Shown here in pieces: positions 36,245-38,315 of a stretch of DNA of 64,000 nucleotides. Source of the DNA: Escherichia phage vB_EcoM-RPN242; the sequence record OL656110.1, one strand, 5' to 3'. The stretch's first letter is position 1, and the number at the start of each line of letters is the position of its first letter. The notes below the pieces were generated by a model. It was not told the origin of the DNA. It made no database searches and worked only from the letters and a program-made list of their open reading frames with translations. The position numbers were made by a program, and so were the translations under genes.

Positions 36245-37081
36245 CTACACAGCTTTCGCTTCAGCCAGAGCCTGTGGAAGCCATTCATTGATCGCCTTAA
36301 CCAGAGACTCAGCATCAGACTCTTTGATCTTCTGACGTTTGGTGAAGGACTTACCGTTCACGTACAGACTGAAGCCCCAGCCACCGGAAACGATAGGCGC
36401 AACGTCGACATACGTATTGGTGCGGGCGTGAAGGTTTTCAGGGTTAGCCAGTTCGGTGACCGGGAACTGGAACCAACGCATGTCTGGGTTCACGTAGCTC
36501 AGGAACACGCCGGGAACAACACCAGCTTCAATCGCCGCCAAGACCGGACCGTGATTAGAAGCGCGAGCCAAGTCAACCATTTCCTCACGTTTGGTGTGAC
36601 GGCGTTTACGCTCTACCAGCGCCGCCTGCGGGGTCAGGGTCTTACCCTTCGATGCTTCTTTCAACATAGAAGACGCCAAGGAACCGATTTTCGCGTCGGA
36701 CGGCTGATTGCCTTCTTCCAGCGCCGCGTTGACTGCATCTTCAACCGCGTCTACCGGGGCGTCGGACACTGGGGCTTCACATGCATCGGCAGAGATCGGT
36801 GCTTCAGCATCAATGGTTTCAGCGACTTTCAGCGATACTTCAGCTTGGGCTTGCTCTTGGGCTTGCGCCAGAGCCTGCTGAGTTTCTTCCTTCTCTTCGG
36901 CGCTCAGACCTTCAATCAGTTCGAAGCCGTTGGCAGCCTGAAGAACACCTTCAACCATACGGCGCAGGGTAACGTTTCCGATGATCAGACCTGCTTCTTT
37001 GATTTCAGCCTGAATAGCAGCAACGTCTTTGCCTTCAATTTCAATTTTGGTTCCAGAATCCACATGAAGAATATATGACAT
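36245..37081 (-). CDS. hypothetical protein with acidic Ala/Glu-rich linker
   Basis: 278-aa ORF; low-complexity central region; conserved-looking C-terminal domain. Confidence 0.5.
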   Translation of the reverse strand: MSYILHVDSGTKIEIEGKDVAAIQAEIKEAGLIIGNVTLRRMVEGVLQAANGFELIEGLSAEEKEETQQALAQAQEQAQAEVSLKVAETIDAEAPISADACEAPVSDAPVDAVEDAVNAALEEGNQPSDAKIGSLASSMLKEASKGKTLTPQAALVERKRRHTKREEMVDLARASNHGPVLAAIEAGVVPGVFLSYVNPDMRWFQFPVTELANPENLHARTNTYVDVAPIVSGGWGFSLYVNGKSFTKRQKIKESDAESLVKAINEWLPQALAEAKAV

Positions 37082-37151
37082 AATAAAAACCCTTTCGTTA
37101 TTAAGACCGTATCCGCGGCATATTGTTGTTCTGACTGTGTAGTGAGAACAT

Positions 37152-37179
37152 AATATACTGCATTTTCATAGATGTAAAC
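37152..37179 (-). promoter_or_regulatory. candidate sigma70-like promoter (GTTTAC, 16-nt spacer, TATATT)
   Basis: minus-strand -35 at 37174-37179 and -10 at 37152-37157 in a 176-bp intergenic region. Confidence 0.2.
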
Positions 37180-37257
37180 TACTTTTTATTGAAAAGAAAG
37201 TTAACACCTAAGTGTTATAAGGTGCGCGACCAAGCGGAGCGCGAACTTGCGTGAATA

Positions 37258-37545
37258 TTAACTTTCTACGTCAATATAGAAAACCATTTCCGGTGGCCAA
37301 CAATTTGTTAGCTCGACTTTTGCGAACCGTGGTTGGCAGTACGCATCAACCGACTCATCAAACAGACAGTGTTCTACATTTGCAATCATCAGATCATCAT
37401 CCACCACTTCAACAGAATGGACAATGATCTTGTGGTCATATGTCAGGCAACCGTCTAAATGCATGTTGTCGGCGCGGAGGTGTTGCATGATGAAATACTC
37501 TATGATCGACTCAAGGGCAGTCGTCAGCTTCAGATAACGTTTCAT
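37258..37545 (-). CDS. hypothetical protein
   Basis: ATG 37545 with SD GAGAGG (track start is GTG 37551). Confidence 0.45.
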   Translation of the reverse strand: MKRYLKLTTALESIIEYFIMQHLRADNMHLDGCLTYDHKIIVHSVEVVDDDLMIANVEHCLFDESVDAYCQPRFAKVELTNCWPPEMVFYIDVES

Positions 37546-37565
37546 ACACACCTCTCACAGTGGAG

Positions 37566-38315
37566 TTATTTGGACAGATAGAAGTTTGGAACTTCAGGGA
37601 AATGTTCTGGTGGGATATCTACCAGAACATCCTGTTTCACCTTCCCTTCGATATCTTCGCGGATACGACGAATCACTTCTTCCTGTTGTTCTGCTGCCAT
37701 CACTTCTTCCATGGCTGAGTACAAGTTTTCTAGAATGACACCTACGTAGTTGTGGATGGCACGACAGGAGTTCTGATCATACTCCATATCCGGATGAATC
37801 GCCAGGTCGACCTGATCACGCCCTACCAGCAGATGTCCAGAAACCAGATTTATCGGGTATTTGAATACTTCACTAGATTTGACAGCAACTCCGTCGGCTT
37901 GCTTCAGCAGAAATTCGGTTTCAGAGAAGCGTTCAAGCAGTTCTGATGGGAATACCATATCGAGATTCTGACGCTTGCGACCAAAGAAGTATAGACAATG
38001 CGCCAGTTTCAGGCATGCATCGGTGGCCATCTTCATGTGTGCTTTAGCGTGTTCATAACCAGCGATCACATCACGGACATAATCGTACAGGTCGGAATGA
38101 CCAAAACGGATGTCCTCTTCGAAGCGGATTGCTGTTTCACTGTCCGGTTTCACACCCAGAACATCGAAAATATTTTGTTCACGAACGAATCTGCCGTTTC
38201 GATCGAAACCCAGAACACAACCTACTTCGAATCCACTCTTTTCAAAATTTGGGAGTTTCATATCAAGGCGAGCTGGGGTAAACTCTAACCCGAACATACG
38301 ATAAATTTGTGACAT
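37566..38315 (-). CDS. hypothetical protein
   Basis: 249-aa ORF with SD GAGG. Confidence 0.5.
   Translation of the reverse strand: MSQIYRMFGLEFTPARLDMKLPNFEKSGFEVGCVLGFDRNGRFVREQNIFDVLGVKPDSETAIRFEEDIRFGHSDLYDYVRDVIAGYEHAKAHMKMATDACLKLAHCLYFFGRKRQNLDMVFPSELLERFSETEFLLKQADGVAVKSSEVFKYPINLVSGHLLVGRDQVDLAIHPDMEYDQNSCRAIHNYVGVILENLYSAMEEVMAAEQQEEVIRRIREDIEGKVKQDVLVDIPPEHFPEVPNFYLSK

Follow-up and report, generated by a model that had tools for sequence, protein, structure and literature searches.

Three conserved genes beside the 5-hmdU DNA kinase of an Agtrevirus-like phage: candidate accessory genes in two expression units

Among the described systems closest to the locus examined here are the thymidine hypermodification clusters of phages ViI, M6 and PhiW-14, which contain a 5-hydroxymethyldeoxyuridine (5-hmdU) DNA kinase (5-HMUDK), aGPT-Pplase/ADDT proteins, a pyridoxal phosphate (PLP) enzyme and a radical SAM enzyme. 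ViI lysates with gp67, gp160, gp226, gp243 and gp247 reproduce 5-(2-aminoethoxy)methyldeoxyuridine (5-NeOmdU) in vitro, and the purified ViI kinase, the serine transferase gp247 and the PLP decarboxylase gp226 account for the chemistry of this base (PMC5889632, PMC8989533). The stretch analysed here (the window, 64,000 nucleotides of Escherichia phage vB_EcoM-RPN242, OL656110.1) contains three minus-strand genes, hereafter A, B and C, of which A adjoins the 5-HMUDK gene and a thymidylate-synthase-like (TS-like) hydroxymethylase gene (Table 1). An original prediction, made from the letters of the window, proposed these genes as candidates for the remaining steps of base modification, or for unrelated early functions. 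The reading that we prefer, and to which we give about an even chance, is that A, B and C are accessory genes specific to their family, in which no enzyme features can be detected, that they are arranged in two expression units, and that they are not steps of hypermodification.

The window belongs to an Agtrevirus-like phage (Ackermannviridae, Aglimvirinae), its region 34000-39200 sharing 98.6% identity with Escherichia phage vB_EcoM-ZQ1 and 91% with the group of Shigella phage Ag3 and its relatives. The three minus-strand open reading frames (ORFs) of the original prediction are borne out by ORF calls, and A, B and C are real, conserved phage genes, each matching a PHROG profile over its full length (A, PHROG 3905, E 8.6e-135; B, PHROG 4562, E 1.3e-47; C, PHROG 4253, E 4.1e-103). 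These three PHROGs, which distant family members match too, are all classed as being of unknown function. Using tblastn against phage records, A was found in 344, C in 269 and B in 255, and all records that were opened belong to Ackermannviridae except that of Vibrio phage VPALA, which has no family assignment yet displays the same gene order. The earlier failure to recognise any motif was reproduced, as searches of Pfam, NCBIfam and PDB sequences with single sequences and family profiles retrieved no match for A, B or C. Likewise, PDB profile searches with the N-terminal domain of A, its C-terminal domain, B and C gave nothing significant, Rfam returned only sub-threshold noise on 36000-39300, and a literature search yielded no relevant transcriptomic or named study of CBA120 orf076-078. 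The homology and structure checks that had been recommended therefore gave no functional name from profiles and, for the AlphaFold2 (AF2) models of A and C, no match to an enzyme fold. The location was misread, however: the order of transcription on the minus strand is gp2, C, B, A, kinase, which puts the three genes upstream of the modification genes, not downstream. Nor do they simply continue the same block, since, although all lie on the minus strand, the region is divided into separate units by a T-tract hairpin, by a sigma70-like promoter and by a strong terminator.

The comparison with the thymidine hypermodification clusters argues against a catalytic role. No Pfam hit above noise linked A, B or C to the hypermodification families (PF18748, PF18723, PF18724, PF18746 and the PLP/radical SAM partners), and the three genes are dispensable for the reconstitution in vitro. 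Nor does their distribution across genomes follow that of the 5-HMUDK and hydroxymethylase genes. In all Ackermannviridae genera examined, A stands at the 5' head of a run of co-directional genes, the last of which encode UvsX and the gp41 helicase. In the enterobacterial genera and in phages 207E48.1, phiA8-29 and VPALA, the genes between A and UvsX encode the kinase, the TS-like protein, the dNMP kinase and the dUTPase; in YC, they encode the TS-like protein, dNMP kinase and dUTPase, with no kinase adjacent; in Kuja, there are a dNMP kinase and a few small genes; and in VAP7, there is one gene of roughly 200 residues. A tblastn search of the complete Kuja genome found no 5-hmdU kinase, TS-like hydroxymethylase, ADDT or HMUDK_hel, and the retention of A without these pathway genes indicates that A is independent of thymidine hypermodification. 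The Kuja member, gp090 (P0162), was recovered at E 1.6e-6 by an A profile built from enterobacterial sequences only; the hhalign checks of P0162 were circular because it was already in those alignments.

Genes C and B have a narrower distribution. Neither gave any Vibrio or Aeromonas record by tblastn, and neither was seen next to A at the loci examined of the kinase-positive phages 207E48.1, phiA8-29 and VPALA, so that, as far as these records go, both are restricted to enterobacterial lineages. Within these lineages, B has no Dickeya match by tblastn, against 19 each for A and C, and the Dickeya phages without B still carry the kinase. We therefore consider it very likely that A, B and C are not enzymes of the modification pathway, as they match no enzyme family, A is kept without the pathway, and the reconstitution is complete without them. 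The other half of the earlier proposal, unrelated early functions, fits A, which has its own sigma70-type promoter; no such fit is claimed for C and B.

Nevertheless, A and the modification genes are neighbours. In all of the examined genomes that have the kinase, A is located directly 5' of it, and in 207E48.1, phiA8-29 and VPALA it is part of a longer run formed by ADDT (PF18724), HMUDK_hel (PF18723), variable genes, A, the kinase and the TS-like gene. The close relative AV101 has ADDT and HMUDK_hel at 12758-13975 and 105024-106223, tens of kb from this locus, and no copy of either was found in the window. The hypermodification genes are clustered in some genera, as in the three former phages, and scattered in others, as in AV101.

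The transcription signals point to two expression units. A consensus scan for promoters and terminators, covering 9 kb of the window, returned promoter-like and terminator-like sites no more frequently than in shuffled sequence, and the calls around A therefore rest on their position and their recurrence across genomes. The match in front of A, the only minus-strand promoter-like site of the scan that precedes a gene, reached the joint-top score (10/12) and would leave a leader of roughly 60 nucleotides. Behind A, the hairpin is the best terminator of the scan (-21.1 kcal/mol, z = -3.85, with none of 200 shuffles folding as well). Nine genomes spanning eight genera or lineages were compared (the window, CBA120, Menlow, Serratia 2050H1, pSal-SNUABM-02, Vibrio 207E48.1, Aeromonas phiA8-29, Vibrio Kuja and Vibrio VPALA), and in all nine a GC-rich hairpin with a T-tract follows A, the sequences differing; the Menlow record annotates it as a terminator. 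The promoter before A was matched by a regular expression in the window, CBA120, SNUABM-02 and VPALA, and similar hexamers were recognised by eye in Menlow, 2050H1, 207E48.1, phiA8-29 and Kuja. From these signals in the sequence, A is a stand-alone cistron with its own sigma70-type promoter and strong terminator, and it is likely to be a separate early unit. This arrangement is similar to that of the T4 gene 32-type cistron, which is likewise monocistronic, with its own promoter and terminator, within a replication-recombination block. Between the A promoter and the start of the kinase gene the scan returned no promoter-like site, and transcription of the kinase operon may therefore rely on read-through from A. 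In the record of Shigella phage Gloob, the A orthologue gp56 (L001 5248-6216) carries an annotated 5' extension that reaches across its own promoter; its translation begins VVYIYEKC..., and its name, 'putative succinate/fumarate mitochondrial', is spurious.

Upstream of A, the order gp2, C, B is kept in CBA120, Menlow, 2050H1 and Sajous1, and the absence of any terminator-like site between these genes in the scan suggests that they form one co-transcribed unit. The palindrome just past the stop codon of B sits about 25 nucleotides upstream of the -35 box of A, with a stem that is conserved and a loop that varies in CBA120, Gloob and SNUABM-02; it was not flagged by the scanner, its stem having fewer than three G-C pairs. 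It probably serves either to end transcription of the gp2-C-B unit, as a weak terminator, or as an operator or regulator site upstream of the A promoter. For the timing of this unit, a T4-type late promoter was considered but gave no assignment: the window has just two copies of TATAAATA, and the one close to gp2 faces the other way, on the plus strand. That copy is an exact T4-type late box at 39094-39101 (+), about 35 nucleotides upstream of a gp54-like baseplate gene (start 39136); according to the CBA120 paper, the late promoter of ViI-like phages was not identified.

Gene A encodes an acidic protein (pI 4.8) whose orthologues include CBA120 orf076 and Sajous1 gp29. A profile search of 1.84 billion representative proteins retrieved only 29 clusters; the full-length matches have about 245-350 residues, and most share a two-domain plan, with a few shorter fragments or longer proteins. 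In an alignment of 27 homologues, the N-terminal domain and the basic arm are invariant and the C-terminal domain is conserved, whereas the acidic spacer, which separates the N-terminal domain from the arm, is hypervariable. Alignment and charge thus confirmed two elements of the original prediction, the acidic linker rich in Ala and Glu and the conserved-looking C-terminal domain, while the equally conserved N-terminal domain, with the motif IGxvTLrxlleGxxxxAnGFElI, had been overlooked. The spacer has an AF2 pLDDT below 50 over residues 87-153, a net charge of -13 and a pI of 4.05. Its length among homologues varies between some tens and some hundreds of residues, and the spacer of P0156 is Lys/Ala/Glu-rich; such diversity in length and charge is what one would expect of a spacer, and less of a specific DNA mimic. 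In the arm, R158, K159, R160, R161, H162, K164, R165 and E166 are invariant in the 27 sequences, and the arginine at profile position 11 is the sole invariant column across the distant A family.

The C-terminal domain of A (AF2 pLDDT 76-88, with a pI of 9.0 for the C-terminal part) has a predicted fold similar to the superfamily of type III secretion system (T3SS) chaperones, YbjN and PsiB (AvrPphF ORF1 1s28, AmyR 5fr7, DR_1245 4h5b, PsiB 3nct), although this fold is generic and the Z scores are modest. No CesT, YbjN, PsiB or related Pfam match was obtained, and the family profile retrieved nothing among PDB sequences. In contrast to these proteins, with which it has no sequence or profile similarity, A has in addition an N-terminal domain, a long variable spacer and the invariant basic arm. 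From the model, the folded C-terminal domain resembles non-enzymatic, chaperone-like binders. The combination of a predicted basic binding module with an acidic disordered segment also recalls proteins of the SSB, gp32 and gp2.5 type, but A has neither an oligonucleotide-binding (OB) fold nor homology to gp32, and its acidic segment is an internal spacer instead of a C-terminal tail.

For gene C, 40 of the 56 nucleotide differences between the window and phage Gloob fall at third codon positions, in keeping with a real gene. Its AF2 model, based on 20 sequences down to 25% identity, is confident (pLDDT 91.5, pTM 0.80) and consists of a small N-terminal domain and two helices of about 40-50 residues arranged as a hairpin with a small beta insertion. 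A structure search with this model found no structural relative outside its own family, and the protein is therefore a candidate new fold. In its otherwise variable tail, a hydrophobic residue precedes P243, N244 and F245, invariant in the 20 sequences, and then Y or F, with no leading Gln. As a clear clamp-binding peptide resembling those of PCNA-interacting proteins (PIP-like), this tail was not accepted, and the idea remains speculative, since the AV101 DNA polymerase, which ends in ...RRVNLLAMMQKKKG, lacks the motif at its C-terminus; the other candidate clamp clients have no shared motif. Assignments of C as the gp59 helicase loader, the gp4 head completion protein or UvsY were also rejected, as those genes are annotated elsewhere in AV101.

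The start codon of gene B is the ATG at 37545, which is preceded by a GAGAGG ribosome-binding site; the mechanical ORF opens at the GTG at 37551. Its product is acidic (pI 4.62, net charge -10), with the conserved core HSVE-x2-DD-x-L-x-AN-x-E. In pSal-SNUABM-02 (L007 2433-2638), the B ORF is gone and a 3' remnant (…FNIDVES stop) is left upstream of A, which points to a recent deletion of B in that Agtrevirus. B thus appears to be a dispensable small acidic protein that has been repeatedly lost. In size, negative charge and patchy distribution it is similar to T4 Arn and T7 Ocr, and this resemblance is one of composition only, given that B has no Pfam or NCBIfam match and no PDB match with its family profile.

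How these accessory genes might act can be outlined as follows, the specific tether and partner-binding mechanisms being tentative and, in our opinion, rather doubtful in their details. A would be made early and in large amounts, and the kinase operon behind it would be fed mainly by read-through of the A terminator. The protein could be a bivalent tether, with one partner bound by the N-terminal domain and another by the chaperone-like C-terminal domain, on either side of the flexible spacer, while the basic arm and the basic C-terminal domain may contact nucleic acid, moderated by the acidic spacer as in gp32- and SSB-type proteins. Such a tether would most likely work within the machinery of replication-recombination and nucleotide supply, or within the host counterparts of that machinery. 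C and B, co-transcribed with gp2, could have accessory, non-catalytic roles in anti-defence or in the protection of DNA ends, as binding proteins or inhibitors, and C might use its invariant C-terminal PNF[Y/F] peptide to dock onto a partner.

A related explanation, which overlaps with the accessory-gene reading rather than excluding it, is that the three genes serve anti-defence or host takeover. B would then be an inhibitor in the style of Arn or Ocr, C a partner or inhibitor acting with gp2 against host nucleases, and A an abundant early inhibitor of a host protein, for instance one that binds RecA, SSB or RNA polymerase as PsiB-like proteins do. T4 gp2 protects DNA ends from RecBCD. The position of C and B behind gp2 is in agreement with this idea, as are the small size, acidity (pI 4.6, charge -10) and accessory-like patchiness of B and the early-type promoter of A. 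In Kuja (L012 30264-33691), the slot after gp2 is occupied, instead of C and B, by two genes annotated as beta-glucosyl-HMC-alpha-glucosyltransferases, a DNA-glucosyltransferase annotation that favours the same idea; Kuja also has a canonical thyA and, as stated above, neither the TS-like hydroxymethylase nor the 5-hmdU kinase; together with the glucosyltransferase annotations, this may point to another type of DNA modification in its genus. However, no similarity to known anti-defence proteins was found in Pfam, NCBIfam, PHROGs and PDB, the structural matches of A concern a generic fold at modest Z, and A is a strictly conserved core gene whose position is fixed, as anti-defence cargo seldom is. 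We thus regard this explanation as unlikely, at roughly one chance in a handful.

Less probable still is that A is associated with DNA or with the virion, either as a nucleoid or replication-factory protein coating phage DNA, like SPO1 TF1 on hydroxymethyluracil (hmU) DNA, or as a minor packaged protein. In CsCl-purified virions of Sajous1, the A orthologue gp29 gave 10 spectra, above SSB (5) and gp2 (3), but the authors warn that low spectral counts may represent contamination (PMC10892097). In addition, the virion proteome list of LIMEstone1 contains no ORF between 32 and 50, so A was not detected there, and C and B are reported in neither virion study. The Sajous1 spectra thus indicate that A is expressed and probably abundant, and are not evidence of a structural role. 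A contact with DNA would be consistent with the invariant basic arm and the basic C-terminal domain, with the Lys/Ala/Glu-rich spacer of P0156 and with distant relatives, among them P0165 and P0167, in which the N-terminal module is joined to a DUF3489-like domain and to Lys/Ala-rich tails, although these weak DUF3489 matches fall short of the gathering threshold (E about 0.006). The whole A protein is nevertheless acidic, and Kuja retains it without the hmU pathway. No confirmed loci were obtained for P0152, P0153 and P0156 in IMG/VR or for P0165 and P0167 in genome and metagenome contigs, and a tblastn search with P0165 against the phage collection gave no match.

The weakest explanation, that A, B or C catalyse or assist missing steps of hypermodification (kinase targeting, thymidine choice or a further chemical step), draws on the constant adjacency of A to the kinase, its place inside the ADDT-HMUDK_hel run of three phages, a kinase without a detectable promoter of its own that may need read-through from A, and the invariant Cys, Glu, Asp and Arg of C in a novel fold, but it is very improbable in view of the lack of profile or fold similarity to modification enzymes, the five other ViI gene products that suffice in vitro and the three purified activities that explain the chemistry, the persistence of A in pathway-free Kuja and near UvsX in VAP7, the absence of C and B from the kinase-positive Vibrio and Aeromonas loci examined, and the loss of B in Dickeya phages that keep the kinase. 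Participation of any of the three genes in base modification, in whatever form, has in our estimate only a slim chance.

Several observations weigh against our preferred reading of A, B and C as accessory genes outside the modification pathway. The partners, activities and mechanisms given above for the three proteins are our inferences. The abundant and early expression of A is deduced from its promoter and terminator, the scan itself performed at the level of shuffled sequence with several of the promoter recurrences read by eye, and the co-transcription of gp2, C and B is suggested by the absence of detectable signals. The adjacency of A and the kinase, together with the flanking ADDT and HMUDK_hel genes in three phages, makes a non-essential link to modification possible, and C, which has invariant Arg, Glu, Asp, Tyr and Cys in a confidently predicted novel fold, is compatible with a new enzyme. 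Moreover, to our knowledge, the factor that sets the partial thymidine pattern of ViI has not been established. Only about 40% of the ViI thymidines are modified (PMC11721090).

Table 1. Coordinates of the genes, protein regions and signals at the locus; positions refer to the window unless another phage is named.
Feature	Position	Strand	Remarks
gp2 DNA end protector	38378-39082	-	PHROG 429, E 2e-67; first gene of the unit carrying C and B
Gene C	37566-38315	-	249 residues, PHROG 4253
C, C-terminal motif P-N-F-Y	37578-37589	-	residues 243-246
Gene B	37258-37545	-	95 residues, PHROG 4562
Palindrome TAACAC-TTAG-GTGTTA, then CTTTCTTTTC	37202-37217	-	AT-rich, just past the B stop codon
Putative A promoter, sigma70-like	37150-37178	-	TTTACA-17-TATTAT, preceded by an A-rich tract; expected transcription start near 37143
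Gene A	36245-37081	-	278 residues, PHROG 3905
A, N-terminal domain	36902-37081	-	residues 1-60, predicted beta-beta-alpha-alpha-beta, AF2 pLDDT 82-89, conserved family-wide
A, spacer	36626-36901	-	residues 61-152, one helix, then a disordered acidic Ala/Glu/Asp-rich stretch
A, basic arm RKRRHTKRE	36584-36610	-	residues 158-166, directly before the C-terminal domain
A, C-terminal domain	36248-36583	-	about residues 167-278, predicted alpha-alpha-beta4-alpha, T3SS-chaperone/YbjN/PsiB-like fold
Putative A intrinsic terminator	36188-36216	-	13-bp stem and T-tract, about 20 nucleotides before the kinase start codon
5-hmdU DNA kinase	35510-36169	-	PF18748, E 3.8e-109; next gene past the A terminator
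TS-like hydroxymethylase	34464-35510	-	
dNMP kinase	33898-34467	-	
dUTPase_2/MazG-like	33347-33901	-	
Phage ACT-like protein	32805-33347	-	PF24021 'Phage ACT-like domain', full-length, E 1e-78
UvsX	31735-32820	-	
gp41-type helicase	29996-31462	-	
gp32 homologue	40107-41129		the phage's own gp32
ADDT/HMUDK_hel loci, 207E48.1 (L005)	2962-4143 and 897-2105		
ADDT/HMUDK_hel loci, phiA8-29 (L006)	2265-3422 and 1062-2261		
ADDT/HMUDK_hel locus, VPALA (L010)	2770-5043		

Some neighbouring genes deserve comment. The 5-hmdU kinase is labelled 'terminase small subunit' in PHROG 800 and in the records of CBA120, Menlow, phiA8-29, VPALA and Ag3; the genuine small terminase subunit (TerS) adjoins the large subunit (TerL) in AV101 (130100-130807), and the label on the kinase is a systematic misannotation. 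The ACT-like gene keeps its position between the dUTPase-like gene and UvsX in the enterobacterial members. The gp32 homologue also ends in a terminator, and its leader (about 41150-41215, minus strand) contains a perfect hairpin, GGGGTATAATTACCCC, embedding a TATAAT box, which may be a promoter or operator element and recalls the autoregulation of T4 gp32.

The Ackermannviridae, including ViI, CBA120 and the Agtrevirus phages, are used in biocontrol and are models of hypermodified DNA, and 50-60% of their genes are unannotated. The present analysis exposes the systematic labelling of their 5-hmdU DNA kinase as a terminase small subunit in many records, and it offers in C a confidently modelled protein with no structural relative, hence a candidate new fold. 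Excluding A, B and C as modification steps would narrow the search for what controls the partial modification of thymidine. A more far-reaching proposal, which we consider a long shot, is that A is an abundant early bivalent tether and a hallmark of Ackermannviridae, an organiser physically coupling the kinase, hydroxymethylase, dNMP kinase and dUTPase to UvsX-gp41 or to nascent DNA, like the T4 dNTP-synthetase complex, while C independently founds a new fold that docks through PNF[Y/F] alongside gp2. If this were true, A as an organiser in kinase-positive phages could help set which thymidines become hypermodified. Finally, with its fixed position, its own predicted promoter and terminator and its putative two-domain tether architecture, A appears as a hallmark gene of the whole family and provides a defined target for interaction screens.

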